DNA of 64,000 nt from an uncultured Planctomycetia bacterium (GCA_964489445.1 CAZAYU010000006.1:53518-117517); one strand, 5' to 3'. Positions 39,719 to 57,642 are shown, counted from the stretch's first letter. A program made the numbers and translations. The notes: generated by a model not told the origin, from the letters alone.

Positions 39719-39880
39719 TTAAACTCCGGCGTAGATAAATGTTATCATCGCTGCAGGACCAATATAATACACTAAAAATGCTAAAAGAATAAGCACAATT
39801 AAAATTGGCGCTAAAAAATACATCTTATGCAGCCTAATCATATGAAACATCTCTTTAAGCATATATAAGATTTTTTTCAT
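39719..39880 (-). CDS. Small single-TM protein, DUF5989-like (SxtK-like)
   Basis: 53 aa, MKKILYMLKEMFHMIRLHKMYFLAPILIVLILLAFLVYYIGPAAMITFIYAGV. AGGAGG RBS 8 nt upstream of ATG. It is not in the ORF track because it is under 60 aa. The pattern (basic N-terminus, LPIL… helix, FIY C-terminus) matches DUF5989 proteins that accompany carbamoyltransferases. Confidence 0.5.
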   Translation of the reverse strand: MKKILYMLKEMFHMIRLHKMYFLAPILIVLILLAFLVYYIGPAAMITFIYAGV

Positions 39881-39889
39881 AGTATCCTC

Positions 39890-40117
39890 CTATGATTGTC
39901 TTAAGCTATTAATAGTATCGACTCCATATCCTTTTGCTTTAACCCAGGATGTATTATTTTTCTTATGTTTTTTGCGCAAAAATCGCCGACCGCAAACAAA
40001 CAAAAAGATTGTGCTAGCGCCTATGCCTAAAATATAGACAACCGTCAACAATACAGGAATCAATACCTTTTGTACTGTCTGGATATAGCTTTGAATTATT
40101 TTTTTTATTTTACTCAT
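39890..40117 (-). CDS. Small membrane protein (one TM, basic C-terminus)
   Basis: 75 aa. Its stop is 9 nt before the start of the DUF5989-like gene, so the two are tightly coupled. Confidence 0.4.
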   Translation of the reverse strand: MSKIKKIIQSYIQTVQKVLIPVLLTVVYILGIGASTIFLFVCGRRFLRKKHKKNNTSWVKAKGYGVDTINSLRQS

Positions 40118-40167: not shown

Positions 40168-41403
40168 TCAATTTTCAAAAAAATTATTCCTGACTACCAC
40201 ATCGTAAATATTTTGAGCCATGACTCCATACCCTTGAGCATTAGGATGTCCCCTGTCTTCTGATAAATATTCTTCTTTGTCTTTCCAAATTTCATTGAAT
40301 CTTTTTTCATTGTCAATGTAGGTAGCTCCATTATTTTCTGCAACTTCTTGCAAAATATAATTCATATCCTTGAAGGACCAAATATCCTCACATTTTGGAT
40401 AATTTTGGATTATTACGGGAATCTCTTTGTCTTTGCAAATATTGATCATCCTTGTAATATCCGAATTAACCCACCCTTGTAGCGTCTTCAAGTACAATAT
40501 TAAATCCTTTTCTCTTTTAATAAAATCTCTGACTATTTCACTTTCTTCTTCAAATTGCGATAAAAACTTAATATTCTCATTCCTTATTTCTGGTTTTTGA
40601 GAAAGAAAATTTGAAATAAAAAATCCTAACGGCTGATATTCATTAGGATTAATTTCTATTGCTTTCTTTGCGTATTCATACGCAATTTCATCATCATGAA
40701 GCATAAGAGCATATATTCTTGCAATTTGCCAATAAGATTCACAATACTCAGGCTCTAATTCCATTGCTATTTTATACCACCTTATCCCTTCCTCCCATTC
40801 TCCTTCATTTTCACAATTCCGTGCTTTATTCCAAGCATTATTAAACTCTTCTGATAAATGAATTTGTCTGTCTTTTTTTTGATCACTCTTAATCTGCTTT
40901 TGTATGTTTTTGGATAATAATTTTACCAATTTGTACACCTTAATCGACTGGATAGAATTATAAATTCTGGCACTTAATGTTTTCTCTTTTGTATATTTAA
41001 TATATCCTTGTGCATACCAAATATTTGCACCTCCAGCTAGAATAACTACTAAGTCCGGATTAAATTCTGCTATCCATCCATCAAATTTCGATAAAATTGA
41101 AAATGTATTGTACCCGCCTACCCCTCGGTTGATAACCTGACAATTTATCTTATTATTATCTGCATTTAACAATTTCTCTAATTGCCGGGGGTAACTTTTA
41201 TCAGAAGGAGCACCGCTACCATGAGTAAATGAATCCCCTACACATAGAATGATATAGCTATTAGCTTCTTTTTGATTGACTTTATCTCTAGCGGCATTTT
41301 TTAGACAAACATACCCTGTCAATCTCAAACCACCTTCAAGTGCTACCAAACAAACAACAATTCCTAGTAAAAAAACAATAAATTTACGTCTTAATAAAAA
41401 CAT
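40168..41403 (-). CDS. SGNH/GDSL hydrolase domain + TPR repeats, secreted/membrane-anchored (tandem duplicate copy A)
   Basis: N-terminal TM helix. Motifs CVGDSFTHGSGA (block I), GGAN (III) and DRGHPNAQGYG (V), with TPR-like C-terminal region. Confidence 0.7.
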   Translation of the reverse strand: MFLLRRKFIVFLLGIVVCLVALEGGLRLTGYVCLKNAARDKVNQKEANSYIILCVGDSFTHGSGAPSDKSYPRQLEKLLNADNNKINCQVINRGVGGYNTFSILSKFDGWIAEFNPDLVVILAGGANIWYAQGYIKYTKEKTLSARIYNSIQSIKVYKLVKLLSKNIQKQIKSDQKKDRQIHLSEEFNNAWNKARNCENEGEWEEGIRWYKIAMELEPEYCESYWQIARIYALMLHDDEIAYEYAKKAIEINPNEYQPLGFFISNFLSQKPEIRNENIKFLSQFEEESEIVRDFIKREKDLILYLKTLQGWVNSDITRMINICKDKEIPVIIQNYPKCEDIWSFKDMNYILQEVAENNGATYIDNEKRFNEIWKDKEEYLSEDRGHPNAQGYGVMAQNIYDVVVRNNFFEN

Positions 41404-42702
41404 TTATGCTGATAGTTCTAGGAATAAAATATATTCTATTAAAGGCCTGGACAAACTTTATTTTTCTAAATCGGAATTTAGCTTTTTTATATGTTTACAA
41501 ATATTTTGAGCCATGGCTCCATACCCTTGAGCATTAGGATGCCCCCTGTCTATCGATAAATATTCTTCTTTGTCTTTCCAAATTTCATTGAATCTTTTTT
41601 CATTGTCAATGTAGGTAGCTCCATTATTTTCTGCAACTTCTTGCAAAATATAATTCATATCCTTGAAGGACCAAATATCCTCACATTTTGGATAATTTTG
41701 GATTATTACGGGAATCTCTTTGTCTTTGCAAATATTGATCATCCTTGTAATATCCGAATTAACCCACCCTTGTAGCGTCTTCAAGTACAATATTAAATCC
41801 TTTTCTCTTTTAATAAAATCTCTGACTATTTCACTTTCTTCTTCAAATTGCGATAAAAACTTAATATTCTCATTCCTTATTTCTGGTTTTTGAGAAAGAA
41901 AATTTGAAATAAAAAATCCTAACGGCTGATATTCATTAGGATTAATTTCTATTGCTTTCTTTGCGTATTCATACGCAATTTCATCATCATGAAGCATAAG
42001 AGCATATATTCTTGCAATTTGCCAATAAGATTCACAATACTCAGGCTCTAATTCCATTGCTATTTTATACCACCTTATCCCTTCCTCCCATTCTCCTTCA
42101 TTTTCACAATTCCGTGCTTTATTCCAAGCATTATTAAACTCTTCTGATAAATGAATTTGTCTGTCTTTTTTTTGATCACTCTTAATCTGCTTTTGTATGT
42201 TTTTGGATAATAATTTTACCAATTTGTACACCTTAATCGACTGGATAGAATTATAAATTCTGGCACTTAATGTTTTCTCTTTTGTATATTTAATATATCC
42301 TTGTGCATACCAAATATTTGCACCTCCAGCTAGAATAACTACTAAGTCCGGATTAAATTCTGCTATCCATCCATCAAATTTCGATAAAATTGAAAATGTA
42401 TTGTACCCGCCTACCCCTCGGTTGATAACCTGACAATTTATCTTATTATTATCTGCATTTAACAATTTCTCTAATTGCCGGGGGTAACTTTTATCAGAAG
42501 GAGCACCGCTACCATGAGTAAATGAATCCCCTACACATAGAATGATATAGCTATTAGCTTCTTTTTGATTGACTTTATCTCTAGCGGCATTTTTTAGACA
42601 AACATACCCTGTCAATCTCAAACCACCTTCAAGTGCTACCAAACAAACAACAATTCCTAGTAAAAAAACAATAAATTTACGTCTTAATAAAAACATTTAT
42701 TT
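40206..42702. repeat. Direct tandem duplication: two ~1.2-kb units (40206..41408 and 41499..42702) with near-perfect identity, separated by a ~90-bp unique spacer
   Basis: Side-by-side reading shows only a few mismatches (e.g. catgactcc vs catggctcc). Identity ends at aaacatttat on one side and aaatattttgagcc on the other. Confidence 0.85.
41458..42696 (-). CDS. SGNH/GDSL hydrolase domain + TPR repeats (tandem duplicate copy B)
   Basis: The protein is identical to copy A except for the last ~30 residues. Confidence 0.7.
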   Translation of the reverse strand: MFLLRRKFIVFLLGIVVCLVALEGGLRLTGYVCLKNAARDKVNQKEANSYIILCVGDSFTHGSGAPSDKSYPRQLEKLLNADNNKINCQVINRGVGGYNTFSILSKFDGWIAEFNPDLVVILAGGANIWYAQGYIKYTKEKTLSARIYNSIQSIKVYKLVKLLSKNIQKQIKSDQKKDRQIHLSEEFNNAWNKARNCENEGEWEEGIRWYKIAMELEPEYCESYWQIARIYALMLHDDEIAYEYAKKAIEINPNEYQPLGFFISNFLSQKPEIRNENIKFLSQFEEESEIVRDFIKREKDLILYLKTLQGWVNSDITRMINICKDKEIPVIIQNYPKCEDIWSFKDMNYILQEVAENNGATYIDNEKRFNEIWKDKEEYLSIDRGHPNAQGYGAMAQNICKHIKKLNSDLEK

Positions 42703-43717: not shown

Positions 43718-44866
43718 TCATTCTCCGGCATTAAGCATTCTTTTTTTAATCTCTTCAATTTCGTCTAAAACGCATATGCTACATTTTTTACAATTTGAAA
43801 TACAATACTCTCCAATAAATTGTTTTGTAAAATCTACAAAATCCTTGTTTTTAAAAAACTTCTTCAGAGATACAAGAGAAAAATAATTTCTCTTATAAAA
43901 TTCATCCCGCATGGAAAAACATTTAGGCATCCTTCCATCTGCCCAAATCGCAAAGGTAATCAAAGGATAATAGCAGCCTATCTTGGAATTTTTGTTAAAT
44001 AATAATTTATTCTTAACCACCGATTTATGGTCTCTGGAATCTTCGATAAAGTCTCTGTTTATTTTAAAATTATTTATGTTAGATCTTATGTGTTTATCGT
44101 AAAAAACTTTTTCTACTTCTGGGATCATCATCAAGAACTCCTCTTTTTGCTGATTAGTCAGCTGTAGCTTCAAGCAATCCTCGTGATCAATCCTTAACGG
44201 CTGTATAAAAAAGTATTCAATATCCATATCATTTAGTATCGATGCAATCTTAGGAATCTGATTATAATTTTCATTGCATAAAACAAACATTATATGCACC
44301 AAAGGGTATCTTTGTTTATACATTTTTTTATATTTAGAAATGCTCTCTAATACAGAAACTGTATTTTTATGCCTTTCCTTATTAAAATATAACTTATCTG
44401 CTACTGATTCGTTGTCTTCATTTAACGTTATATTCAACTGGCTAACAAACTTGCTTTTGACAATATTTCGTATATCCATATCAGTAAGATTGGCACCATT
44501 GGTTATTATTCTTAGAAAAGAATCGACTGCTAACATTTTTTCCAGAAAATAAAACATATTATCTTTATAAAAGAACGGCTCTCCACCACCGAACAAGTGT
44601 ATATCTTTAAAACCGACATCCTCTATATCTATTACAAGTTTATCGATATAATCTTTATTATTAAAAAAGTCCTTTTTAATGCTCACTTTAGTATGTTCCG
44701 CGCAATACTTACAACGATCATTACACTTGTTGGAAGGAAAAACAAATAAACGAACTGGATTGATACCCTGGTAAGAACTCAACTGATATAAATAGCTACT
44801 CATATAATTAGCTACTTTTTCTTCATCAAACTTAAATTTAAATTCTGATAAATTCTGCTTATTCAT
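43718..44866 (-). CDS. Radical SAM/SPASM protein
   Basis: VFPSNKCNDRCKYCAEH followed by LFGGGEPFFYKD. C-terminal Cys cluster (CYYP…CFSM…CISNCKKCSIC). Confidence 0.75.
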   Translation of the reverse strand: MNKQNLSEFKFKFDEEKVANYMSSYLYQLSSYQGINPVRLFVFPSNKCNDRCKYCAEHTKVSIKKDFFNNKDYIDKLVIDIEDVGFKDIHLFGGGEPFFYKDNMFYFLEKMLAVDSFLRIITNGANLTDMDIRNIVKSKFVSQLNITLNEDNESVADKLYFNKERHKNTVSVLESISKYKKMYKQRYPLVHIMFVLCNENYNQIPKIASILNDMDIEYFFIQPLRIDHEDCLKLQLTNQQKEEFLMMIPEVEKVFYDKHIRSNINNFKINRDFIEDSRDHKSVVKNKLLFNKNSKIGCYYPLITFAIWADGRMPKCFSMRDEFYKRNYFSLVSLKKFFKNKDFVDFTKQFIGEYCISNCKKCSICVLDEIEEIKKRMLNAGE

Positions 44867-44899: not shown

Positions 44900-46984
44900 C
44901 TAATCATAATGACAAAACTGCAAACAAGAATTTTTACATTGTTTAGTAATTAACCTCATTTCAGCCGCTTTTTGAGAATACCAAGCATCTTTCAAAGACA
45001 TATCATAGATATTACCACAGCTACCTTGGCAAAAAAATACTTCCGAGCTAGCTTTGCCATTCTTCCAGCAAGGTGCCGTAATAATAATACTTTTATGCCC
45101 GGCACAGCATGGTTTATCTATAGTCCTCTGTGAATAATAATCAAGTAAAAGGTCAAAACTAGGATTTGAATCGACTTTTAGATAAGAATAGCGATGCTCT
45201 TTTATTCTTTGAAAGTTATCACTTAAACATTTTAGTCCATAATTATCGGGCCATAACAAACTGTGCTTACATCCTTTTTTTGAGTATTGAGGATTAGTAT
45301 TATTAACCAGATAAGGAATAAAATTGATTGAATTTACTTTGAGAGCATCAGCTATTTGAGTTAATTTAAATAAATCATTACAATTTTTGCTGAATATTAC
45401 TGTCCCAATGCCTATAGATTTTTTTTTGTTTAATAAACGAAGATGCTTTATTGCTTCCATTGCATGGTCATAGCTACCTTTTCCCCTTATAAAGTCATTG
45501 CTTTCCTTTAATCCATCTAAGGAGAAATGAATATGGTCTATGTGCGATTTAGAAATCATTTCAACCATCTGTTTATTATAAAAACCATTTGTTGTTACTG
45601 AAATATTAAGGCCCAGGCTATTAATATAGCTGGCAATTTCAAATATTTCTGCTACTAAAAACGGCTCACCTCCACTTAACACAACAGTTTTGATATTCAT
45701 CATTCTTGCTTGTCTGGCTATATCAAATATCTTATTCTTATCTACCTTTATATTATTCTGGTTTATGTCTTTTTTTATACTGCAAATGCTACACTTTAAA
45801 TTACAAGATTCCGTAAGCGATATAATTATCATCTCTGGCGGAACAATAGGAACATTCAAAATTCGCGACATGCTGTATTTTCCATTAAGGCTTTTAGAAG
45901 CATACTGATTAAAGTTAGTTGTTTCACTACGCAACGGCCCACAACAATTACTACACGCCGGATCAATCATCTTTCCCGCTAATATTTTTTTCCGTAATGC
46001 ATTTAACGCTTTGCTATCCCATACCTTCAACAAACTATCGTCTATCTTTTCTATTTTATTCTTGATAAGCGAGCAAGGTGAAATGTATCCGTCTTCGGAA
46101 ATAACTAATGTTTTCCATAAATGGATACAATACAATTCCTTTTCATTAAAAATTGCAGACACTGTTGACGATTTTCTTTGAAAATTTTTATAAAGAGAAA
46201 TTATAAAATCAATATTGTGTTGTATCCTTGTTTCAAATCTTTTTTTTGATAAAATATCTATCAACTCTTTTTGCTGTTCATCAGAAAGAGACATGCCCCT
46301 TGCCCCTTCATGTACTTCCAGCAAAGGCATAAAATGTATCTCATCAACTCCCTGGTTAATACAATATTCCATAAATAGATCTAGATGGCCATAGTTCTCA
46401 TTAGAAATTACCGGGCAAACTCTGATTAATGTATAACTTATATGATTATTCTTTTTAGCCATTTGAATAAACTTAAAAATTTTATTTACTTTAGCAAAAC
46501 ATCCATTTACCCCACGTATCTTATCGTGAACTTTTTCTAAATGTGAATCAAGACTTATTCGTAGAATATCCCACCCAACAGCCACTAATCGTTGGGCAAT
46601 TTCGGCATTAAGAAGCAAGCCGTTAGTTATCAAAATACCCTTCATATTACAAGCCTTGATCATTTCTAAAATATCAATTAGCTGCGGATACAGAAAAGGT
46701 TCGCCTCCTCTACCTCCAATATTCCAAGCTAAAGAACCATTTCTGCTAGATTGTTCAACTAGCGAAAGCATCCTTTTTTGTGGTATTATTCCTTCAAAGC
46801 TATCAACTGTTTTTTGATCATACCCTCCACAATAAGCACAATGTGAATTACAATTGTAGGTAGGGAACCACTCAATCATCTCTGGCCCTTGTAAGTTGTA
46901 ATAGATTGATTTTGCTAACCTATCTAAAGGTGTTAAAAGTGTTTTATTTATTAGATTTTGATATTTCACCATTTCTTGTCCCAT
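44900..46984 (-). CDS. Double radical SAM protein (two tandem rSAM/SPASM modules in one polypeptide)
   Basis: Module 1 has TYNCNSHCAYCGG and GGRGGEPFLYPQ. Module 2 has ISLTESCNLKCSICSI and LSGGEPFLVAE, with C-terminal CKNSCLQFC. Confidence 0.75.
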   Translation of the reverse strand: MGQEMVKYQNLINKTLLTPLDRLAKSIYYNLQGPEMIEWFPTYNCNSHCAYCGGYDQKTVDSFEGIIPQKRMLSLVEQSSRNGSLAWNIGGRGGEPFLYPQLIDILEMIKACNMKGILITNGLLLNAEIAQRLVAVGWDILRISLDSHLEKVHDKIRGVNGCFAKVNKIFKFIQMAKKNNHISYTLIRVCPVISNENYGHLDLFMEYCINQGVDEIHFMPLLEVHEGARGMSLSDEQQKELIDILSKKRFETRIQHNIDFIISLYKNFQRKSSTVSAIFNEKELYCIHLWKTLVISEDGYISPCSLIKNKIEKIDDSLLKVWDSKALNALRKKILAGKMIDPACSNCCGPLRSETTNFNQYASKSLNGKYSMSRILNVPIVPPEMIIISLTESCNLKCSICSIKKDINQNNIKVDKNKIFDIARQARMMNIKTVVLSGGEPFLVAEIFEIASYINSLGLNISVTTNGFYNKQMVEMISKSHIDHIHFSLDGLKESNDFIRGKGSYDHAMEAIKHLRLLNKKKSIGIGTVIFSKNCNDLFKLTQIADALKVNSINFIPYLVNNTNPQYSKKGCKHSLLWPDNYGLKCLSDNFQRIKEHRYSYLKVDSNPSFDLLLDYYSQRTIDKPCCAGHKSIIITAPCWKNGKASSEVFFCQGSCGNIYDMSLKDAWYSQKAAEMRLITKQCKNSCLQFCHYD

Positions 46985-47000
46985 CTAACATCATGTCTAA

Positions 47001-49001
47001 TTAATAGTTATCTGGATTAATATGCAACCCCTGCAAACACGGTTCTTTACAATTTTTTATTCTCTCTAGTTCTTTTTGATAATCGCTTGAGTTAAAAACA
47101 TCTTTGAACCTCAATTTATATAATGGCATATTTATTTCTGTTCCACACAAATACGGCTTACCTTCAAAAGTAATATTTAATGATTCAAATCCGGTTAAGC
47201 AACGATTTGATTTTTTAAGCTTATTATCAAAATAGTCAATATATCGTTCAACAACCGAAACCGGACGAGCACTTATATCAGGGTTATTCTTTACATACTC
47301 AATAATATCCTTCAACTTATTTTTTTCCAACTCTGTTATCAAAAAATTCCCTTTAACATGGCATAGTTCATTGTTTGGAATAACTGGCTGGATGTCAACC
47401 CTTACCCCCTTATACTGTTTAAGCAACATTAAAAATGCAATATAATGCATGAAATTCTCCGGCATCAATATCGAACTTACTGTTAAAAAATTAATCCTCT
47501 GCAATTTATAATAATTATGATAAATTGCTTTAAAATTAAAAAACGACTTTTGAAAAGCGCCACTTCCACGAATAAAATCATGAGTATATTCCAGCCCATC
47601 GATTGAAAAAATTATTCCTATTTTCTTTAATTCTTCTTTTGAAAAATTATTCAAAAATTCCTCATTAAATAGAATCCCATTAGATATAATATTGACTGTA
47701 GCAATATCTGTTGCGCAAACAAATTTAATTATTTCCGGTAAATCTTTACGTAACAGCGGCTCTCCCCCACCAAATGTGATTCTTTCAATATTGCAATCAT
47801 TATTTAAATTAAGAATCAGCCTCTTCCACTCTTCCTTAGTAATTTCATCTTGGATATCAAATTTACCCTTACCAGTAGTGCACATAATGCATTTAAGATT
47901 ACAGCGATTAGTAATCGCAATATAAAACTCTGTGATATTGAACTCCTTTCTATCCATTATTACTTTCTTGCTGCTACTTTCTTCGTCTAAGCAACGTTTT
48001 AGCTCTTGATTAATTGCTTTAATTGGACTACAACAGCTATCCCAGCAAAGAGTGCTATCGTAATAGTGCTTATATTGTTCGATTAGTTTATAGTAAATAT
48101 CACCTAAGTCCTCATCGTAAACATTAAATGGTGTTTTTTGAGGATCACCGTTACACTTTAATACTTGCCCCTGACAATCAATTAAAATTTTATATAAGTA
48201 GAAAAAACATTTATTTTTTGCAATACTTGATATTTCCGAATTAATTTTTTGGATATCAGCGCAAGATTCATTGTCTAACCATTCTGCTCGGTTAAAATTA
48301 ACAGGAGTATCCATATTTTTTAATCTATATTTAAAATCTATTATCTGTTTGTCTGCAGGCAATAGCTCATTAAACTTTTGTGTCATTTTGACTAATTTGA
48401 TTAAAGTTACATTCTTTATTCTATAAAGCTCTGATTTTAAAAAATAATTTTCCACGTTATCATAGTTAATATTTGTCACTACCATATTAAGATTTAAATT
48501 AAGAGTTGGATTATTTTTAACGGTAAATTCTAAGAACCCTATTATTCTCTGTAAATAATCATCACCACCACAAGCCGGTTTTAATTTATACTGAATAGCT
48601 GGAACAAATGAATCTAAAGATATAGTCACTACATCCCAACCTATTTTTTTTATAAATTGCGCAAATTCTAAATCAAGTTTGCTACCGTTAGTCAATAAAG
48701 TACCAATGAGTTTTCTCTTTTTAATCTCTTCCATTAAAAATTTAATATCCTCGACTATTGTTGGTTCGCCAATTAAAGATGTTAACGAAATTTCCTGAGT
48801 TCCCATCTTTTTTGCAGCATTAAGAATTTTTATTAAAACATCTCTGGATAAATATTTATGCTCATTATGTTTTACACTTCCGGAGCAATACAAACAATTT
48901 AGATTACAAAAATTATTAATAACTAAATCAATGCAATAAGGTCCTTTTTCCACGCCTTTCAACCTTTTCTTAAACCAAGAATAAAACTCTTTTGAAATCA
49001 T
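47001..49001 (-). CDS. Double radical SAM protein (two tandem rSAM/SPASM modules)
   Basis: Module 1 has VINNFCNLNCLYCSGS. Module 2 has IAITNRCNLKCIMCTT and FGGGEPLLRKD, with C-terminal CKEPCLQG. Confidence 0.75.
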   Translation of the reverse strand: MISKEFYSWFKKRLKGVEKGPYCIDLVINNFCNLNCLYCSGSVKHNEHKYLSRDVLIKILNAAKKMGTQEISLTSLIGEPTIVEDIKFLMEEIKKRKLIGTLLTNGSKLDLEFAQFIKKIGWDVVTISLDSFVPAIQYKLKPACGGDDYLQRIIGFLEFTVKNNPTLNLNLNMVVTNINYDNVENYFLKSELYRIKNVTLIKLVKMTQKFNELLPADKQIIDFKYRLKNMDTPVNFNRAEWLDNESCADIQKINSEISSIAKNKCFFYLYKILIDCQGQVLKCNGDPQKTPFNVYDEDLGDIYYKLIEQYKHYYDSTLCWDSCCSPIKAINQELKRCLDEESSSKKVIMDRKEFNITEFYIAITNRCNLKCIMCTTGKGKFDIQDEITKEEWKRLILNLNNDCNIERITFGGGEPLLRKDLPEIIKFVCATDIATVNIISNGILFNEEFLNNFSKEELKKIGIIFSIDGLEYTHDFIRGSGAFQKSFFNFKAIYHNYYKLQRINFLTVSSILMPENFMHYIAFLMLLKQYKGVRVDIQPVIPNNELCHVKGNFLITELEKNKLKDIIEYVKNNPDISARPVSVVERYIDYFDNKLKKSNRCLTGFESLNITFEGKPYLCGTEINMPLYKLRFKDVFNSSDYQKELERIKNCKEPCLQGLHINPDNY

Positions 49002-49095: not shown

Positions 49096-52071
49096 TCAAT
49101 TACAAAGCACTTTAATTGCTTCCCTGATTCTTTCCTTTTGGCTATGCGCCTTTGAAGGAGAAAAAAAAGCATATCCGTCAGCTTTTGTTAAATAATTTAA
49201 AAGCAACCGTAAGTCATTGATTAAATATTGTTTTCCGCCACCAAGGCAATTGATTTTCAAATTATTGCTAGATCTTAATAATACTTCCATATTTTCGATT
49301 ATCAGAGAATAACTATTATTCATTAATTCCTGTAACGGTAACATCGGATACAATGATACATATTTTTCTAAGAAACGTAATTCTTGAAATATCAAAAATA
49401 AATTTCTTTTGCTACACAGCCGGCTGTGTATCTCTTCTGCCGAATCGGAAGACGGCCGTATAGAACAAAATTGAACACAATTATTTCGACAGTTTCTTAT
49501 TGTGTTTCTGAAATGTTCGGCATCTTTTGAAAACCATACAGTATCCCAAGAATCCTTGTCACCCTCTCCAAAATGCTGTAATTTTCTATCATTTGGCCCA
49601 TTACACACAAAGCATAATTTCTTTCCCACAAGTATTGCACGAGTAAAGCCAGCATAACATTTATCTACATATACAGCTTTTGAAAAATAAGTATATATTT
49701 TTTCACAAGGAATTTCTACATGTATTGGCATCCGTTTCTTTTTTTCTTCAATCTTTCTTAAAGCATCATCTAAATCCGGAAGTCGCTGTTCAGGTATCCA
49801 AAATTCGCTGCTTCTCATTCCTTTTAAGTCAGTATTGCACACGTAAGGTTGGACACAAATGCCACAAAGATCATACTCAAGACAAAAGTCTAGCATATCA
49901 TACATAGTATCAAGCGTTTGGTTCATTAAAATAGATAGAGTATTTACCCGCGGAAAAATCTTTTTTCTCCTTTTTTTCTCTACATTAATATAATTAATCG
50001 CTTCTATTGCTTGTTCAAAAACTCCTTCACCCCGCAATGAATTATGAATATCAGCATTTGGTGAATCTATAGAAATACCTAAGGTATCAAGCTCTACGTC
50101 TATCAATCTATCTATAATCTTTCTGCTTAAAATTGTTCCGTTAGTGTTAAGATGGACTATTATTCCAGGATAATAATCTTTTACATATTTTACAAGATTA
50201 AATATGTCTGGCCGCATTAATGCTTCTCCGCCAGTAAAATATACTTGCTTGAGATTACCTAGCTTATACACATCATCAATGCTCTTTTTAACATAAAACA
50301 TATCTAGTTCATCTTCGTTAGCATTCCAAACTCCGCACATTTTACAACGCAAATTACATTTTGTAGTAAGCAACAATTGATACATAAACGGCCCCACTAA
50401 AGGTTTATTTAGATAAAGCGAAAAATTATACAGATAATCTTCCTGAATATTTTTAAGAAAATCTAATTGTCCCTTGTCATCTTCTATTGAATAATTAAAG
50501 ATATTTACATCTTCCTCTAACATCAAACAACCTTTTGCCGAATCAATCTTGCTATCAATAATTTTGTCCTTTACTCCGTTATCGTTAGCATCTTTAGCTT
50601 TTATATAATAGGCTAAGGCTTGCTTGTGCTCATTATTCTCAATGCGCTTATCTCCTAGAAATAGATAATATTCAGATGGAGAGTAAAAACTATCTTCTTC
50701 CCGGCCAATATAATTATTGCAAAATTCTAGAATCTCTATTCTCTTTTGTAATGTATTCTCCCCATCTCTAGAGTGCCATCGCACAGAATTAAAATTATCT
50801 TCAAGCTCAATGCCAAAATCTCTTCTATTTTCATAGATATACGTTCCTTTAGCTATTACTAATAAATGAAAAAGAACCTTACCAATAAATCGTCTGTTAC
50901 GCTTAATAAATTCTGCTGTAAGGATAATATCCACATCTTCTTCTCCGGGAAGCCCTATTATCAACGTAACATCTGCTGTTATTCCTGCTGTATGAGTATT
51001 CTGTAGCACCAACTCTACCAATTCAGGCGTAAAACGTTTACCAATAGTCTTTAATGTTTTCGGGCTTAAACTTTCTAATCCGTAAGTAATGTGTGAGCAA
51101 CCTGCCATTTTCATTTTACTTAATAGATCTAAATTCATTTCTTCTCGTATACTAGCCTGCCCTCCCCAGTTAAGCTTTATTTTACTATCAACCAAACGAT
51201 CACAAAGACCATTCAATACTTTTAAATCTCCATTAATAAGAGAATCATTTAAAAATAGTGAACTAATACAAGGATGCTTATTGATTTGGTACATAATTTC
51301 ATCAAATATATTTCCTGCACTCCGTGTCCTGTATTTTTTCCAGTTTCTTGACTCACTGCAGAATATACATTTATTAATGCAGCCTCTACTAGTTGATATT
51401 GCTAACTTATGACTGTGAAACTCATCTAAATGATATTTATCAAAATTAAAATCAGAATAATCAGCAAAAGGCAATTCATCTAAATTCTCTATTAATTCTT
51501 CTTCCGGACAGCTTATGATATCATTGTTAATGTCTCGAAAAGCTATTCCATTTAAACCGCTAACCTTACCACATCTTTCTACTATAGCTACTATCTGAGG
51601 AAGAACTTTTTCTCCTTCAAGATAACAAATAGCATCTACAAACTGATTAGTATGTAATAAAGATGCCCCCATCTCAGACTTAGTACAATGCGGTCCGCCA
51701 AAAATAATAATTTTATCGCTATTCTCCTCTTTAACCCTCCGAGCTATTTCTTCAGAAAAAAGACGATTTAATCCCGTAATGGTAAACCCGATTGTTTTAT
51801 AACCAATACTAATAATTGACTTTACACATTCTTCTATAAACTCCCCGTATAAATTGATTATTTTTTTAACAAAATCATCATTATACCAATCTGTGGGCCT
51901 ATCATATAAGGAGTTTTTCCTCAGCCCAACTAAATAATTATAAAATTCAATATTAAAATCTAAGCATTTTACCTTATAGCCTTCTGCCTGGCATGCTGCC
52001 TTAAGCAAGGCTAGACTATAGGGTGGTGAATGTATCGACCAACAAGGAGCTTGAACAATGACCAGGCTCAT
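49096..52071 (-). CDS. Fusion protein: cobalamin-binding (class B) radical SAM + family-B SPASM radical SAM + ~120-aa C-terminal tail
   Basis: MSLVIVQAPCW, …FGGPHCTKSE…, STSRGCINKCIFCSE. The second module has LLTTKCNLRCKMCGV and FTGGEALMRPD, with CRNNCVQFC. Confidence 0.75.
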   Translation of the reverse strand: MSLVIVQAPCWSIHSPPYSLALLKAACQAEGYKVKCLDFNIEFYNYLVGLRKNSLYDRPTDWYNDDFVKKIINLYGEFIEECVKSIISIGYKTIGFTITGLNRLFSEEIARRVKEENSDKIIIFGGPHCTKSEMGASLLHTNQFVDAICYLEGEKVLPQIVAIVERCGKVSGLNGIAFRDINNDIISCPEEELIENLDELPFADYSDFNFDKYHLDEFHSHKLAISTSRGCINKCIFCSESRNWKKYRTRSAGNIFDEIMYQINKHPCISSLFLNDSLINGDLKVLNGLCDRLVDSKIKLNWGGQASIREEMNLDLLSKMKMAGCSHITYGLESLSPKTLKTIGKRFTPELVELVLQNTHTAGITADVTLIIGLPGEEDVDIILTAEFIKRNRRFIGKVLFHLLVIAKGTYIYENRRDFGIELEDNFNSVRWHSRDGENTLQKRIEILEFCNNYIGREEDSFYSPSEYYLFLGDKRIENNEHKQALAYYIKAKDANDNGVKDKIIDSKIDSAKGCLMLEEDVNIFNYSIEDDKGQLDFLKNIQEDYLYNFSLYLNKPLVGPFMYQLLLTTKCNLRCKMCGVWNANEDELDMFYVKKSIDDVYKLGNLKQVYFTGGEALMRPDIFNLVKYVKDYYPGIIVHLNTNGTILSRKIIDRLIDVELDTLGISIDSPNADIHNSLRGEGVFEQAIEAINYINVEKKRRKKIFPRVNTLSILMNQTLDTMYDMLDFCLEYDLCGICVQPYVCNTDLKGMRSSEFWIPEQRLPDLDDALRKIEEKKKRMPIHVEIPCEKIYTYFSKAVYVDKCYAGFTRAILVGKKLCFVCNGPNDRKLQHFGEGDKDSWDTVWFSKDAEHFRNTIRNCRNNCVQFCSIRPSSDSAEEIHSRLCSKRNLFLIFQELRFLEKYVSLYPMLPLQELMNNSYSLIIENMEVLLRSSNNLKINCLGGGKQYLINDLRLLLNYLTKADGYAFFSPSKAHSQKERIREAIKVLCN

Positions 52072-52201: not shown

Positions 52202-53203
52202 TTATACATCGTCACAGAAGCATGGTAACAAACATGGCCATGCGCATCTTTTTACCTGATTTCTTGCCTGAATTATTTCCTTGCTCATAAGGACATCTTT
52301 TAATAACGTGTTTTTTAAACTTCCATACACAGAAAAACACGTTCGACATTTTCCATCATTAGCCACCAGAATTGTTCTGTCCGCAGACAAACATTTAGCA
52401 TTTTCCGGCAATAATCTGTTGCAGTAATAGTCTCTCATTAACAACAAGTTGGTAATTGAATTCTTTATAAAATCCGGTTTTTCTTTTTTTAACTCTATCA
52501 GTTTACTTAAGGAATCATCCAGTATATTTAGCCGATCTTTAAGAACCCAAAATTCAGATTTCTTTCGTTCATTCATCCTTAGATTATTGGGAAGCAGCGC
52601 TTGAAATTGTAATGAATCTGCACCTAAAGATTCAACAAAAGCAGCAATGTCCGCTAATTCTTCTAAATTATGATTCAAAATTATAGTAATTACGTTAAAT
52701 TTTACCTGCGAATTACTTTTCTTCAAGCAAGAAAGAACACCAAGCCCTTCTACTGTTTTCTTCCAAGCATTATCATAGTTGCGGATATAATTATGGGTAT
52801 CTGCTTTTAATGAGTCTAAAGAAAAGACCAACGAAATAGTATTATCCAGGATATAGGGCTCTAATCTGTTAATATTTTCCGCAATCATTATCCCATTTGT
52901 CAAAACACCTAAATTTTTAATATTTATATTTCTTGCGTAATCAAATATTTCATATATATCTTTTCTTATTAGTGGCTCACCTCCAGAAAGAGCAATTTCA
53001 TTTATCCCCAGTTTTTTAGCTTGATCAAGCACCCGCTGGACATGATAAATATCTATATCTTTTTCGGAAATACCAGTTTTCCATATATCACAAATACGAC
53101 ACTTTAGATTGCAGGAATGTGTAATATCTAAGATGATAAGCCGAGGCAGATAAAGATTATTAACTTTGTTTAACATTGCCAGACTGAATTCGGAAATATT
53201 CAT
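52202..53203 (-). CDS. Radical SAM/SPASM protein (family B)
   Basis: DITHSCNLKCRICDI followed by LSGGEPLIRKD, with C-terminal CAWPCLLPC. The track start (53242) is TTG and overlaps the upstream GT2; ATG (MNISEF) is at 53203. Confidence 0.7.
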   Translation of the reverse strand: MNISEFSLAMLNKVNNLYLPRLIILDITHSCNLKCRICDIWKTGISEKDIDIYHVQRVLDQAKKLGINEIALSGGEPLIRKDIYEIFDYARNINIKNLGVLTNGIMIAENINRLEPYILDNTISLVFSLDSLKADTHNYIRNYDNAWKKTVEGLGVLSCLKKSNSQVKFNVITIILNHNLEELADIAAFVESLGADSLQFQALLPNNLRMNERKKSEFWVLKDRLNILDDSLSKLIELKKEKPDFIKNSITNLLLMRDYYCNRLLPENAKCLSADRTILVANDGKCRTCFSVYGSLKNTLLKDVLMSKEIIQARNQVKRCAWPCLLPCFCDDV

Positions 53204-54107
53204 GAATATTTCCAAAAATATAAAAAATTTTATGAAGAGCAAAATAAATATAAACAGTTATTCGTCGAGCCCCTGTCCCCTTACTCTGATGTTTAAGAAA
53301 TTGTTTACCTAATATACAGCTAAATCGTGGAATTTTAATAAGATTGCCTAATGTCGATAGCCAAAAAGAACTTCTTCCTATTTTTAGTTCTTTTAATAAA
53401 ACATGACTATTGTTTTTATATTTTGTTAATAGGTTACCTCTTCCGTAAATATAAGCTTGTTCAAGAAAGCTTATGAATGTATCCTCGCGATAATGAATAA
53501 CTCTTATTTTTTTATCCCAGATAAATCTATGGCCATCCTTGAACAGACGCCAAAAAAAATCTAAATCTTCGCCTCCCGGCAAAGGAAAATCTTTATCAAA
53601 TTTATATTTCTCAAAAATTTCTCTCTTAAGAGAAACATTGCAAGTAGGAAAAAATATTATTTCTTCTTTGCCATCAATATTGGTATTAATACTACACGTA
53701 CTTAAGAATTGACTAACCAATACAGCAATCTTAGGCGATCGAGAATAAGTACCTCCACCTACAGCCGAGACATCGGGGTTATCCTTATGTATTTTAACCA
53801 TCAATTCCACCCAATTTTTCTCAGCAACACAATCATCATCAGTGAATAAAACTATTTTTCCTTGGGCAGCTTCTACTCCTAAATTTCTTGCTACAGCTGG
53901 ACCCCTAGAAAGTTGAGAAACATAAACTAAATTACCAAAGTTAAATTTTATTTGAAAAATTAACTTCTTTATCTCTTTATTTGCTCGATCATCAACAACT
54001 ATAACCTCAAACTTATTTAGAGGATAGTTCTGCTTAGCTAAAGAACTCAAGCAATCAATTAATTTTTTCTTTCTGCCACACGTAGGTACTACTACCGAAA
54101 CTTCCAT
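53160..54107 (-). CDS. Glycosyltransferase family 2
   Basis: VVVPTCGRKKKLIDCL…VIVVDD…LFTDDDC GT-A motifs. Confidence 0.75.
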   Translation of the reverse strand: MEVSVVVPTCGRKKKLIDCLSSLAKQNYPLNKFEVIVVDDRANKEIKKLIFQIKFNFGNLVYVSQLSRGPAVARNLGVEAAQGKIVLFTDDDCVAEKNWVELMVKIHKDNPDVSAVGGGTYSRSPKIAVLVSQFLSTCSINTNIDGKEEIIFFPTCNVSLKREIFEKYKFDKDFPLPGGEDLDFFWRLFKDGHRFIWDKKIRVIHYREDTFISFLEQAYIYGRGNLLTKYKNNSHVLLKELKIGRSSFWLSTLGNLIKIPRFSCILGKQFLKHQSKGTGARRITVYIYFALHKIFYIFGNIHEYFRIQSGNVKQS

Positions 54108-54111
54108 TTTT

Positions 54112-56841
54112 TTACTCTCCGTTAACCATTATTTCACCTTTTGAATATATATACTCTCCAGGCATTAAACTAATCGGAACATCATCTAAATATTGTAAAA
54201 CTCTACCACGAAAATTAAGATCTGTGTTTACTATGTTAAGCTTGTCCTGCTGACTTCTAAAAAAGGGGGTAAATATTATTTCGGGAAAATAACTTTCCTT
54301 TTTTCTAATCCTCTTTACCCCAGCATAGAACTTATTATCCTCCGACAAACAACATGAAGAAATAACTCCCCAATCATCGTCAACATTTCCATCAAAAAGA
54401 GGAAATGTCCCTTCATTTTTATTGAATGCCCATTGTTTATATTCTTCAGAAAGCATAATATTTGTCTGCTGGCGATCAATTCCAATTTCTTTATTAACTC
54501 TCATTTTAATTGAAAACGCAATAACACCCTCCCGTACTAATCTTAAATTCCAATATTGTTCTATTGGCAAATGCATCCATCTGCCAATAGAATTAATTTC
54601 GGAATCATTACCCTGAACACTCCATACAGCATGCGTACAAGAATCGTACCATCTGCCTTGCGACCGCAAAGAGGTATAAAAACCAAGCTGCTTTGTTAAT
54701 TTTTTATCATTCCAAAATATTTCTCCTCTCCCATTTGTTAAATTATACTTTAATTTTTTTTTCGCCACCATCCAAGAATCATTGGTAGTATTTTGTTGTT
54801 TAGCGTCATATTTTAAGGAAATTCTTACCTCAAAACACCTATGCCTACCTTGCGCAAACTTTCTTTTATCCTCCGGTTCAACACTTTGGATAGACAATAC
54901 TCTTGTCCGGCAAGACATAGCTGAATTAAAAATTTTAGCAAAATTATGCGGTTTTTTAGAGAAATCTAATAAAATATCCGGCAAATGTTTATCTAAACTA
55001 GACAAAATAATACTTTCATCGGGAATACATCTTTGCAACATATCCTCTTCGCGCTCTGAAAAAATATCCGAAAATGCACCCTTACCATACTTACTAAAAT
55101 AATATTTGTATCTTTCTGATAACTCAATCCTGATAAACTTTTCCTCAATCTCTAATTCATCTTTTATCTCGATATCTAAAGTAAAAATAAAATAATCTTC
55201 ACTAATAATTTCTATTTCCCAGATACAAATAACAGGTAAATACGCACTCTCACACCTGGCAATTATTTTTTTATTGCCTTCTTTTTTTATCTCCCAGAAA
55301 CTAGATTCAAAATTATACACCCGGCCTGCACAACGTAAAAAAAAGCTTACACAATTACCTTTGACTAAAGATAAATCATTAAAGAACGGAATGACTTTCC
55401 CATTATTAAATGTTAACCTTAACCTCTCTTGTGATATTGTTGTTTCGTCTTGAATATTCTTAAGATAAGCAGGCACATCTTTGATTCCAATAATGATTTT
55501 TCCGCTAAAAAATGTTAACCGTTTCCCTTTATTTTTAGAATAATTTTGTACATTCGCTATTTGAAATTGCAAAATTCGCGAGGAAATGAAACAATCTGAA
55601 TTTAATATTTGCCCATAGACAGGTAAAGCAGATAATGATTGTTCAACAATAAAAGAAGGCATACTCTCAGCAAGGCTATTCTCGGTTATTACTCCGATAC
55701 ATCTTCTAGAAATATTATCTTCCAATAAAGGCATCCATTGGTTATTACCTTCAATTATGGAGGGAAAATTATCTTTTTCGCCTAGAGAAGTAAACCATTG
55801 CTGATATTTATCAACTAAAATAAAATCAACACATCCCTGTTCAATTTCCATCATTTGTTCACTCTCAATCCCAATATCTATCTTTATCTCGCCGGAATCC
55901 ATCAATTCTATTTTCCAAACAACAATAAGCTCTATTTGATATATCCGCCCCTTAGCTGTAATCCGCTTATCACTTTCTTCTTCAATCTCCCAGTAGGCTT
56001 GAAAAGAATTGTACCGTTTATCTCGCGTAAAGAAATTAATATGTATTCCGGAAGAATTAGTAATAGGCTGATCGGCCCAATTAATAAATAAGCGGCCATT
56101 ATTAAATACAATACTTAAATTATCTTTTTTTAGGATCCCGACACCCTCCTTTGCCCCGACTACTTGTGTATAAAGAGCGATGGTCTTTTTCACCTCAGAA
56201 TCCTTAATGAGCCTACCCTCTTTAAGCAAAATAGCTCTCTTGCAAAGCCTCTGCAGCATCCCCATTTCATGGGTAACGTAAACAATTGTTGCACCTTTTT
56301 CTCTGATTTCAAATATTTTCTTTATGCATTTTTTTTGAAAAGACTCATCTCCCACCGCTAAAGTATCATCGATTAATAATATTTCCGGATCCAGACAAAT
56401 AGCAATCGAAAACGCCAAACGGACAAACATTCCTTGAGAGTAATACTTAACCGGAGCATTAATAAATTTCCCAATTGCGGCAAAATTTTCAATATCTTCG
56501 TATTTCTGATCAATTTCCTGTCGTGTAAATCCAAAAAAAGTGCTGTTTAAGAAAATATTATCTTTTCCGCTTAATTCCTGCTGAAAACCAGCTCCCAAAT
56601 CTAAAAGCCCGGTTACTCTCCCAGAAACACTCACCTCGCCTCGATCAGGGACGAGTATTCCGGCAATTAACTTTAAAATAGTAGATTTTCCTGCCCCGTT
56701 TTCTCCGATTATTCCCAGACTTTGCCCCTTCTCAACATCAAATGTTATATCCTTTAATGCCCAAAAATTATCCCAAGAAAGTTTACCATCAATAATAAAC
56801 TTTATTCGAAATATTTCCCAAACATCTTTAAACGTGATCAT
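54112..56841 (-). CDS. wzt: ABC transporter ATP-binding protein, Wzt/TagH-like, with ~650-aa C-terminal extension built from three tandem ~200-aa domains
   Basis: Walker A GENGAGKST, signature YSQGMF, Walker B ILLIDD, H-loop THE. Three repeats follow (…FNNGRLFINW…, …FNNGKVIPFF…, …GRGEIFWNDKKL…). Confidence 0.75.
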   Translation of the reverse strand: MITFKDVWEIFRIKFIIDGKLSWDNFWALKDITFDVEKGQSLGIIGENGAGKSTILKLIAGILVPDRGEVSVSGRVTGLLDLGAGFQQELSGKDNIFLNSTFFGFTRQEIDQKYEDIENFAAIGKFINAPVKYYSQGMFVRLAFSIAICLDPEILLIDDTLAVGDESFQKKCIKKIFEIREKGATIVYVTHEMGMLQRLCKRAILLKEGRLIKDSEVKKTIALYTQVVGAKEGVGILKKDNLSIVFNNGRLFINWADQPITNSSGIHINFFTRDKRYNSFQAYWEIEEESDKRITAKGRIYQIELIVVWKIELMDSGEIKIDIGIESEQMMEIEQGCVDFILVDKYQQWFTSLGEKDNFPSIIEGNNQWMPLLEDNISRRCIGVITENSLAESMPSFIVEQSLSALPVYGQILNSDCFISSRILQFQIANVQNYSKNKGKRLTFFSGKIIIGIKDVPAYLKNIQDETTISQERLRLTFNNGKVIPFFNDLSLVKGNCVSFFLRCAGRVYNFESSFWEIKKEGNKKIIARCESAYLPVICIWEIEIISEDYFIFTLDIEIKDELEIEEKFIRIELSERYKYYFSKYGKGAFSDIFSEREEDMLQRCIPDESIILSSLDKHLPDILLDFSKKPHNFAKIFNSAMSCRTRVLSIQSVEPEDKRKFAQGRHRCFEVRISLKYDAKQQNTTNDSWMVAKKKLKYNLTNGRGEIFWNDKKLTKQLGFYTSLRSQGRWYDSCTHAVWSVQGNDSEINSIGRWMHLPIEQYWNLRLVREGVIAFSIKMRVNKEIGIDRQQTNIMLSEEYKQWAFNKNEGTFPLFDGNVDDDWGVISSCCLSEDNKFYAGVKRIRKKESYFPEIIFTPFFRSQQDKLNIVNTDLNFRGRVLQYLDDVPISLMPGEYIYSKGEIMVNGE

Positions 56842-56847
56842 ACTATT

Positions 56848-57642
56848 TTACAATTTTTTAAATAATTCCTTCTCAAAATACGAAAAAACTTTAAATCCAA
56901 GAATTAAACTGACAATAGCCCACAAGAATGTACCTGCAAATATAGAAATGCTAGGCAAATTTCCATTAAAAATAACATCACGATAATATTGAATATAGCA
57001 ACTCATAGGATTTATACTTATTACCCACCTAAGCTGTTCGGGAAGCATCTCCGAAGAATAGAATATCGGAGTTATCCAGAACCAAAGCATAAGCATAACC
57101 CCTAGAAAATGTGTTATGTCACGATAAACTACATTAAGAACAGAAAGCATAAGCGAAATACCGCAAATAAACAAAAAATGCAAAAATAAAACGATAAACA
57201 AAAAAGGGACCAAACTAATTATTTTAAAATTAAAAAATAAAAATACAAAATATAGTGTGCAAAACCCAGCAATAAATTCCAAAAAATTTGCCAGAACAAC
57301 AGATATCGGAAATATTTCTTTAGGTATATTGAACTGTTGCAAAAGCCCTCGCTGATTTATAATCGACCCTGCAGCATCAAACAGAGAACTAGAAAAAAAC
57401 ATCCAAGGGATAATACCAGCAAGAACGAAAAGAGGAAAATTTTTGATTTCCGCCTTAAAAATAAAAGTGAACACAAAAGTTATTACAAGCATTAATAATA
57501 AAGGATTAACTACTGCCCAAAATACCCCTAAAAAGGCATTCGAATATTTTGCCTTCACCCTAGAAAAGGCAATTTTCCATAAATTGCCACGATAAGAATA
57601 TATTTTAGTTATTCTTTCCCTTAACATAATACTAAAACGCAT
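56848..57642 (-). CDS. wzm: ABC-2 type transporter permease (Wzm-like)
   Basis: 264 aa, six hydrophobic segments. It sits immediately upstream of the Wzt-like ATPase, separated by 6 nt. Confidence 0.7.
   Translation of the reverse strand: MRFSIMLRERITKIYSYRGNLWKIAFSRVKAKYSNAFLGVFWAVVNPLLLMLVITFVFTFIFKAEIKNFPLFVLAGIIPWMFFSSSLFDAAGSIINQRGLLQQFNIPKEIFPISVVLANFLEFIAGFCTLYFVFLFFNFKIISLVPFLFIVLFLHFLFICGISLMLSVLNVVYRDITHFLGVMLMLWFWITPIFYSSEMLPEQLRWVISINPMSCYIQYYRDVIFNGNLPSISIFAGTFLWAIVSLILGFKVFSYFEKELFKKL

Follow-up and report, generated by a model that had tools for sequence, protein, structure and literature searches.

Two radical S-adenosylmethionine (rSAM) domains in one polypeptide are known from FbiC (CofG::CofH, the FO synthase of coenzyme F420 biosynthesis), which is fused in many bacteria and split in archaea (PMC11917521). 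Co-occurrence of the radical SAM domain (PF04055) with sugar-metabolism Pfam domains in long fused proteins of Omnitrophota was reported in a 2026 preprint (10.64898/2026.06.07.730766). Here we describe two adjacent open reading frames (ORFs), ORF44900 and ORF47001, each encoding a protein with two rSAM domains, in a 64,000-nucleotide (nt) stretch of DNA from an uncultured Planctomycetia bacterium (GCA_964489445.1, CAZAYU010000006.1:53518-117517), referred to below as the window. By analogy, FbiC is the closest conceptual precedent for these proteins. The explanation that we favor, and consider reasonably likely as a whole, is that they are fusions of distinct adjacent genes of one pathway, whose substrate is a glycan exported by an ATP-binding cassette (ABC) transporter.

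The two halves of ORF47001 are designated modules N1 and C1, and those of ORF44900 modules N2 and C2 (Table 1). An original prediction, made from motifs in the DNA sequence, stated that each protein contains two complete rSAM modules, and proposed domain mapping with hidden Markov models (HMMs) as a check. Pfam searches identified two Radical_SAM (PF04055) stretches in each protein (E-values of 4e-38 and 1.7e-36), and every half exceeded the gathering score of 29.5 bits when scanned singly (N2 55.5, C2 79.6, N1 65.7 and C1 65.3 bits). Together with the four CX3CX2C triads, which lie 18–49 residues past the start of their modules, these scores bear out the prediction of two complete modules per ORF. 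A GGEP motif had been attributed to every module; it is present in N2 (residue 93), C2 (residue 438) and C1 (residue 412, the only one in ORF47001), but not in N1, which has IGEP at residue 77 and whose orthologues have V/IGEP in place of GGEP. Similarly, a CLQxC ending had been ascribed to both C-terminal modules, and is found in C2 but not in C1, which ends in CKEPCLQGLH and lacks the last Cys of the motif.

The Pfam SPASM threshold of 21.5 bits was passed by N2 alone (30.2 bits). No SPASM match was found in N1, C1 or C2 scanned as single halves, despite the invariant Cys clusters at their C-terminal ends. Each module has the sequence features expected of an rSAM enzyme that works on its own, followed by a conserved C-terminal Cys cluster, and all four are probably self-sufficient rSAM modules of the SPASM/twitch subgroup.

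Conservation of the Cys residues was examined by concatenating the split orthologues of five other lineages as virtual fusions, which were aligned with the window proteins at 49–57% identity. All twelve Cys residues of the rSAM triads were invariant across the six lineages, so that the conservation of both triads in orthologues, on which the original prediction depended, was verified. A further five to seven auxiliary Cys residues per module were also invariant in this alignment: C190, C208, C286, C304, C344, C347 and C348 in N2; C535, C626, C652, C656, C683, C687 and C691 in C2; C265, C283, C319, C323 and C324 in N1; and C403, C429, C547, C601, C619, C651 and C655 in C1. Their patterns are non-canonical (N2, CX17C…CX2CC; N1, CX17C…CX3CC; C2, C…CX3C…CX3CX3C). 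A degenerate second domain is ruled out by the Cys conservation together with the Pfam scores of the single halves.

The fusions recur in independent assemblies, and are therefore not artefacts. An identical 690-amino-acid (aa) N2::C2 protein (:: denotes fusion) is encoded on nine contigs, and each of the four occurrences shown traces to an independent sample or assembly (two from ENA and one each from JGI and Logan). The 666-aa N1::C1 gene adjoins N2::C2 on both contigs that reach that far (L012 and L013). Other samples contain P0012, a full-length orthologue with 56% identity that likewise has N1 fused to C1, through a homologous linker. Splitting of the two genes by frameshift correction, which had been named as a possible refutation, was thus checked, and the fusions stand; identical fusions in independent assemblies rule out an assembly or frameshift artefact. 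Both ORFs are confirmed as genuine didomain rSAM proteins, and we infer from their sequences that they are bifunctional polypeptides with catalytically competent modules.

The same modules were found in about ten related loci, in which the gene order Wzm/Wzt, G(::R0), B, A, N1, C1, N2, C2, T is kept, and all named metagenome-assembled genomes (MAGs) among them belong to Omnitrophota. Here G is a family 2 glycosyltransferase (GT2), R0 and T are single rSAM proteins, and B and A are the two parts of ORF49096, the fusion of a B12-binding rSAM with a second rSAM that had been predicted next to the didomain genes and is indeed found there. The A part, likewise an rSAM (triad C572/576/579), has a Cys cluster at its C-terminal end as well as a helical tail. 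Exactly one CX3CX2C motif per module was present at every locus. With separate genes divided by commas, the window reads Wzm, Wzt, G, R0, B::A, N1::C1, N2::C2, T. The fully split arrangement of modules B to T is seen in L005/L006 (Wzt, rSAM, G::R0, B, A, N1, C1, N2, C2, T, …, WbuX-like, carbamoyltransferase), L008 (Wzm, Wzt, rSAM, G::R0, B, A, N1, C1, N2, C2, …), L017 (Wzm, Wzt, rSAM, G::R0, B, A, N1, C1) and L016 (B, A, C1, N2, C2, T; N1 absent), such that in L005, L008, L016 and L017 all of these modules, where present, are separate genes. The remaining loci are L010 (G::R0, B, A, C1, N2; N1 absent), L004 (G::R0, A::X, N1, C1, Y, N2, C2), L007 (A::N1, C1, N2, C2, T), L003 (G::R0, A::N2, C2; N1 and C1 both absent) and L001/L002 (A, N1::C1, N2…).

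Most relatives therefore encode N1, C1, N2 and C2 as separate genes. Among the seven lineages having both partners, N1 and C1 are fused in two and N2 and C2 in one; N2 and C2 are adjacent in 7/7 lineages covering both. B is not joined to A in L005, L008, L010, L016 and L017, where each has its own gene, and T comes after C2 in L005, L007 and L016. The conserved order across about ten loci, combined with the varying fusions of adjacent modules, supports the assignment of the modules to one pathway. By Rosetta-stone reasoning, the variable fusions are evidence that the modules cooperate, possibly as a complex.

The fusion boundaries also vary in the opposite direction. G::R0 is a single fused gene (633–648 aa) in all six other lineages covering it. 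In the window, a 1-nt frame change around 53170–53180 separates G from R0, which starts anew at an overlapping ATG (~53203). This split recurs on 18 contigs, the six places shown being from six different samples, and is therefore a real fission event, in a lineage that has also fused B::A, N1::C1 and N2::C2.

We next consider the origin of the joins. C2 is closest to the window paralogue o22287 (37% identity, E-value of 2e-67) and C1 to the window paralogue o21203 (29% identity), and both C-terminal modules are members of a paralogue family that is expanded in the window. The best match of N1 among the rSAM modules compared is N2 (26–27% identity); N2 itself matches o18835 and o22287 more strongly. 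In neither protein are the N and C halves the closest paralogues of one another, suggesting that the proteins are fusions of distinct adjacent genes; internal tandem duplication was thus rejected as their origin. Duplication of an ancestral (N,C) pair into (N1,C1) and (N2,C2) was likewise not supported, C1 and C2 not being close. In the split versions, the neighboring genes overlap by 4 nt or lie a few nt apart, and alignment of the fused junctions shows that about a dozen residues are missing, made up of the C-terminal end of the upstream protein and the N-terminal end of the downstream one. Each protein probably arose through the merging of two adjacent, translationally coupled operon genes, with loss of the stop codon and of the next start, leaving a short flexible linker. 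Fusion would supply 1:1 stoichiometry and proximity.

Fusion is not mechanistically required, since the modules operate in sister lineages as separate proteins. Nor are the fused partners obligate, because few lineages fuse them, and N1, or N1 together with C1, can be absent. Because the modules are mostly encoded separately, N1 can be dispensed with in loci that keep C1, and A is joined to N1 in one lineage and to N2 in another, we argue that the joins are lineage-specific, opportunistic fusions of adjacent pathway genes rather than the parts of an obligate two-step machine.

The genes surrounding the two didomain ORFs, and the covalent fusions of glycosyltransferases (GTs) with rSAM modules, point to a glycan substrate. 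The window encodes 17 rSAM proteins with 21 rSAM domains, amounting to ~8,700 aa or ~41% of its length; five of the 17 carry B12-binding domains, and four are rSAM::rSAM fusions (ORF4711, a B12-rSAM::rSAM protein, ORF44900, ORF47001 and ORF49096). All large ORFs lie on the minus strand, with a GC content of ~33%. Genes for a Wzm/Wzt-like ABC transporter are located directly upstream of the rSAM block, and occupy the same position in those related loci that extend far enough upstream; the ATPase has Wzt/TagH-like nucleotide-binding domain (NBD) matches below the equivalog cut-offs. Four GT2 genes, one more at 17477–18838 among the rSAM genes, and two family 4 GT genes are present, together with genes for a DegT aminotransferase, an NAD epimerase/dehydratase, YdjC, an AsnB-type amidotransferase, a WbuX-like N-acetyl-sugar amidotransferase (148 bits, below its cut-off) and a NodU/CmcH-type carbamoyltransferase. 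Interleaved with these are a SAM methyltransferase, a pyridoxal phosphate (PLP) decarboxylase, a flavin amine oxidase, GDSL esterases and tetratricopeptide repeat (TPR) proteins. This make-up is probably that of an ABC-transporter-dependent surface-glycan cluster of Omnitrophota. GT2::rSAM fusions occur in the related loci, and GT2::rSAM::rSAM and rSAM::GT28::rSAM proteins in distant relatives. Judging from this context and from the GT-rSAM fusions, the enzymes most probably act on the sugar units of a glycan carried on a lipid, or else on its nucleotide-sugar precursors.

Following established rSAM enzymology, the [4Fe-4S] cluster held by each module's own CX3CX2C motif would cleave SAM reductively to generate a 5'-deoxyadenosyl radical, which would abstract a hydrogen atom from the substrate, and the C-terminal Cys-ligated auxiliary cluster or clusters of each module would probably function in substrate binding or electron transfer. 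The modules would catalyze consecutive tailoring steps in one pathway, along with the GT2 that is fused or adjacent to an rSAM, further rSAM paralogues, and the B12-dependent rSAMs, which are probably C-methyltransferases. The glycan would be assembled in the cytoplasm in lipid-linked form and exported afterwards by the Wzm/Wzt transporter. As rSAM enzymes are cytoplasmic, their action would precede export. A promoter and terminator scan gave counts no different from those of shuffled sequence.

Several observations weigh against a glycan substrate. None of the modules met a curated NCBIfam cut-off: the best match was to TIGR04317 (101 vs 380 bits), and the other families compared, including MoaA, NirJ, viperin and PqqE, fell further below theirs. 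Assignment to a characterised family by NCBIfam HMMs thus gave no result, all matches being far below the cut-offs. For the B part of ORF49096, the best model is a RiPP (ribosomally synthesized and post-translationally modified peptide) maturation C-methyltransferase (TIGR03975, 157 bits against a cut-off of 282 bits). The PDB sequence and fold neighbors are generic, with the peptide-acting SkfB, SuiB, anSME and EpeE interleaved with viperin, BlsE, DesII and MoaA. Because these neighbors are split between peptide- and nucleotide/sugar-acting enzymes, they were uninformative as a guide to the substrate, whose class rests on context. No Bac_transf or Glycos_transf_4 match, indicative of an initiating phosphoglycosyltransferase of the WecA/WbaP type, was found in the window ORFs; the gene could lie in another part of the genome, as that for WecA often does. 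Neither rSAM tailoring of a Wzm/Wzt-exported polysaccharide nor rSAM arrays in such clusters were found in the searchable literature, which also yielded nothing specific on Omnitrophota and radical SAM, on radical SAM together with O-antigen and SPASM, on GT/rSAM/B12 fusions or on tandem radical SAM proteins. Finally, the catalytic activity of every module is a prediction.

A more specific proposal, which we put forward tentatively, is that in a small Omnitrophota clade at least nine rSAM enzymes, marked by their variable fusions as physically coupled to GT2 and to each other, remodel a Wzm/Wzt-exported cell-surface polysaccharide at unactivated carbons, through C-methylation, deoxygenation, epimerisation, or C-C or C-heteroatom cross-links, and that the tandem rSAM::rSAM, GT::rSAM::rSAM and tri- and tetra-rSAM proteins of metagenomes are fused forms of that same pathway.

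The original prediction had proposed a processive radical assembly line acting on one substrate. In its obligate form, the domains and both proteins would constitute a fixed complex with a shared channel, carrying out consecutive radical steps. This would agree with the conserved module order, the adjacency of N2 and C2 in every lineage that covers both, the retention of N1::C1 between orthologues that are 56% identical, and the many fusions between neighbors (G::R0, B::A, A::N1, A::N2, N1::C1 and N2::C2), a classic sign of interacting proteins. The assembly line was not borne out, however, as the modules are separately encoded in most lineages, and N1 is lost with C1 kept in L010 and L016, L003 having lost the two together. 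The fusion of A to N1 in one lineage and to N2 in another suggests that the partners are interchangeable. Pfam scans of the window ORFs and halves showed no carrier or docking domains. AlphaFold2 prediction of ORF44900 (mean predicted local distance difference test [pLDDT] score of 67, predicted template modeling [pTM] score of 0.49) gave two β/α cores, with pLDDT >90 for the N-terminal and 75–85 for the C-terminal core; the linker (residues 343–383) had pLDDT <50, and the auxiliary regions were likewise unreliable, with no evidence of a fixed interface. We regard an obligate assembly line as unlikely.

Maturation of a RiPP or protein would assign the array a ribosomal, possibly glycosylated, substrate, with peptide glycosylation by the GT2 and export by the ABC transporter. 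SPASM-type rSAM enzymes are best known as peptide maturases; SkfB, SuiB and anSME are among the top PDB sequence and fold matches, TIGR03975 is the best model for the B12-rSAM part, and the GT2 also resembles MftF, below the cut-off. The family-model matches, however, are all far below their curated cut-offs. No RiPP recognition element (RRE) or PqqD domain was matched by Pfam in any window ORF, and neither a leader peptidase nor, in the gaps inspected without a dedicated precursor predictor, a conserved short precursor ORF was found. The intergenic gaps within the rSAM block are at most 141 nt, and the sole conserved small ORFs encode two membrane proteins (39719–39880 and 39890–40117) accompanying the carbamoyltransferase. 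A RiPP is disfavored by the lack of an RRE or PqqD domain, by triads within 50 residues of each module start, by gaps inside the block that are too small to hold precursor genes, and by conserved small ORFs that encode membrane proteins. Moreover, the transporter is Wzm/Wzt/TagH-like, and the block is embedded among sugar-nucleotide and glycosyltransferase genes. On this evidence, peptide maturation appears rather improbable.

Alternatively, the array could tailor a membrane lipid or a polyprenyl or glycolipid aglycone, introducing C-C or ether cross-links or methyl groups, and leave the sugars unmodified. Weak matches to the tetraether synthase Tes, GDGT-MAS (7tol), HpnH/HpnJ and a 'lipid biosynthesis B12-binding rSAM' family are consistent with such a role, as are an LPG_synthase_TM protein and a GT-C-like membrane protein encoded in the window. 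These matches are sub-threshold and no better than those to unrelated rSAM families, the window contains no fatty-acid or isoprenoid biosynthesis genes, and the fusion partners of the rSAM modules are glycosyltransferases, so that we give lipid tailoring little credence. The least probable reading, that the didomain ORFs result from assembly or frameshift errors or that one domain in each protein is degenerate and non-catalytic, is already effectively refuted by the invariant triads and auxiliary Cys residues, the above-threshold Pfam scores of each half, the nine contigs and the diverged N1::C1 orthologue, although N2::C2 has been seen in one 90%-identity cluster only.

The only full-length N2::C2 protein was the query itself, both in a word-indexed search of 5.8 billion proteins and in an exhaustive phmmer search of 1.84 billion representatives. 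The former also returned stand-alone N2 orthologues (P0003, P0004 and P0005) and the A::N2 fusion P0002, and the latter a stand-alone C2 orthologue (P0037, 60% identity) and a split N2 (P0038, 54% identity). Module A was present in 3 of 185,579 GTDB species representatives, all Omnitrophota MAGs, along with one weak match in Micrarchaeota, and a scan of JGI metagenomes added a handful of contigs only. The original description of didomain rSAM proteins as rare holds for characterised enzymes but not within this subfamily: among the 147 best representatives at 50% identity, a ranking that favors tandem proteins because a two-domain query scores two-domain matches higher, 30 contain two or three CX3CX2C+GGE modules.

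A Pfam scan of the longest of these proteins revealed larger architectures among distant relatives from metagenomes. P0042 and P0122 contain three rSAM modules each, and P0154 (1,927 aa) a B12-binding domain and four rSAM stretches. P0046 and P0068 have the arrangement GT2::rSAM-SPASM::rSAM-SPASM, and P0156 the arrangement rSAM-SPASM::GT28::rSAM-SPASM.

Table 1. Coordinates in the window of the didomain rSAM genes, their modules and the neighboring genes
Feature	Coordinates	Strand	Description
ORF44900, N2::C2 didomain rSAM	44900..46984	minus	694 aa; 690 aa from M5 (start in public gene calls)
Module N2 (aa 1-372)	45869..46984	minus	rSAM core and SPASM/twitch-like auxiliary Cys domain
N2 triad C45-x3-C49-x2-C52 (CNSHCAYC)	46829..46852	minus	Invariant in six lineages
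Module C2 (aa 373-694)	44900..45868	minus	rSAM core and C-terminal Cys cluster; ends in CLQFCHY
C2 triad C394-x3-C398-x2-C401 (CNLKCSIC)	45782..45805	minus	Invariant in six lineages
ORF47001, N1::C1 didomain rSAM	47001..49001	minus	666 aa
Module N1 (aa 1-345)	47967..49001	minus	rSAM core; triad CNLNCLYC, C32/36/39, at nt 48885-48908
Module C1 (aa 346-666)	47001..47966	minus	rSAM core; triad CNLKCIMC, C367/371/374, at nt 47880-47903
T, single rSAM (C48/52/55)	43718..44866	minus	C-terminal CX3CX2C-like auxiliary motif at residue 355
ORF49096, B::A fusion	49096..52071	minus	991 aa; B is a B12-binding rSAM, C231/235/238
R0, rSAM	52202..53242	minus	Probable ATG start at 53203, giving 333 aa
G, GT2 glycosyltransferase	53160..54107	minus	Fused to R0 in other lineages
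Wzt-like ABC ATPase (909 aa) and Wzm-like ABC-2 permease (PF01061)	54112..57642	minus	

In the Wzt-like ATPase (54112–56841, minus strand), the NBD match covers the first ~230 of the 909 residues. The C-terminal extension of ~650 aa has no Pfam match and is conserved in the related loci (34–42% identity), and may be a large glycan-recognition module. A second, independent B12-rSAM::rSAM fusion, ORF4711 (4711–7491, minus strand; 926 aa, triads at C227 and C592), has a C-terminal module of a different rSAM subfamily, shared with the adjacent paralogues o977 (977–2215) and o2241 (2241–3473) at 30–34% identity.

The two small membrane proteins predicted next to the carbamoyltransferase are encoded on the minus strand and have 53 and 75 aa. 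Both are conserved in L006 (15882–16282), where they adjoin the WbuX-like and carbamoyltransferase genes, and they resemble carbamoyltransferase partners of the SxtJ/DUF5989 type and are unlike RiPP precursors. Two GDSL-esterase/TPR genes (40168–41403 and 41458–42696, minus strand) are the product of a very recent tandem duplication, being 98% identical over the reported 300-nt repeat, with proteins that read identically until the last ~30 residues.

Comparison with L008 (15547–21561) shows that C2 is followed there directly by orthologues of o22287, o21203, o20054, o18835 and GT2_17477. In the window, T and ~20 kb (23331–43717) lie between C2 and o22287, containing TPR, two GDSL, WbuX-like, carbamoyltransferase, YdjC, GT2, AsnB, three B12-rSAM and unannotated genes. 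The extra ~20 kb suggests that the window cluster is an expanded version. Four ORFs on the minus strand inside the rSAM-rich region (16389–17495, 23350–23853, 27020–27793 and 29953–31647) gave no Pfam or NCBIfam match; that at 27020–27793 has a weak homologue (31% identity) among the rSAM genes of L003.

Peptides, cofactors, lipids and a few nucleotide-sugars are well-established targets of rSAM chemistry, which is essentially undescribed for bulk cell-surface polysaccharides. The present locus and its approximately ten relatives place up to 17 rSAM proteins in a Wzm/Wzt glycan cluster, with rSAM modules covalently tied to glycosyltransferases. Should a glycan be the substrate, the modifications would be out of reach of polar chemistry, and the enzymes would be new catalysts for sugar C-H functionalisation. 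Under the tentative proposal of remodelling at unactivated carbons, the locus would represent the first rSAM 'tailoring array' for a glycan, and its product a polysaccharide of a new, heavily radical-modified class. Since the modules occur naturally both fused and split, they offer a ready comparison for asking whether the fusion of radical enzymes confers channelling. On a conservative reading, tandem rSAM proteins are a recurrent, evolutionarily fluid architecture and no rarity. More interesting than the fusions is the conserved, taxonomically narrow, rSAM-dominated glycan cluster that houses them.

The window proteins fit the phylum-wide tendency of Omnitrophota to fuse pathway enzymes. The long proteins of the preprint differ from them in having thousands to >100,000 aa, and neither the array, nor its synteny, nor tandem rSAM::rSAM proteins are described there. 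The SPASM/twitch enzymes (anSME, SkfB, SuiB, PqqE, MoaA and BtrN) have the same build, an rSAM core followed by a C-terminal Cys-rich auxiliary domain, and give the best PDB sequence and fold matches, at 15–24% identity. In contrast to these families, the modules described here miss the curated cut-offs by a factor of >3, have no RRE, show non-canonical Cys patterns and occur in a glycan context, not one of RiPP or cofactor biosynthesis.

DesII, BlsE and viperin are among the top fold and sequence matches, which cover the generic core only. They show that such cores can act on nucleoside diphosphate (NDP)-sugars or nucleotides, and therefore provide a working model for the proposed glycan tailoring. 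Unlike the window proteins, they are single-domain enzymes of small-molecule pathways, and we know of no enzymes of this type from arrays inside Wzm/Wzt polysaccharide clusters.

FbiC has no specific sequence relationship to the didomain proteins. CofH is a marginal match for T only (E-value of 5e-4), and no CofG or CofH model was among the 25 best NCBIfam matches for either ORF44900 or ORF47001. The substrate of FbiC is known, and the fusions described here differ from it in having varying partners (A::N1, A::N2, N1::C1 and others). To our knowledge, the FbiC domains also lack SPASM/twitch auxiliary clusters. What FbiC shares with the window proteins is the presence of two rSAM domains with their own clusters serving one pathway, and the alternation of fused and split forms between lineages.

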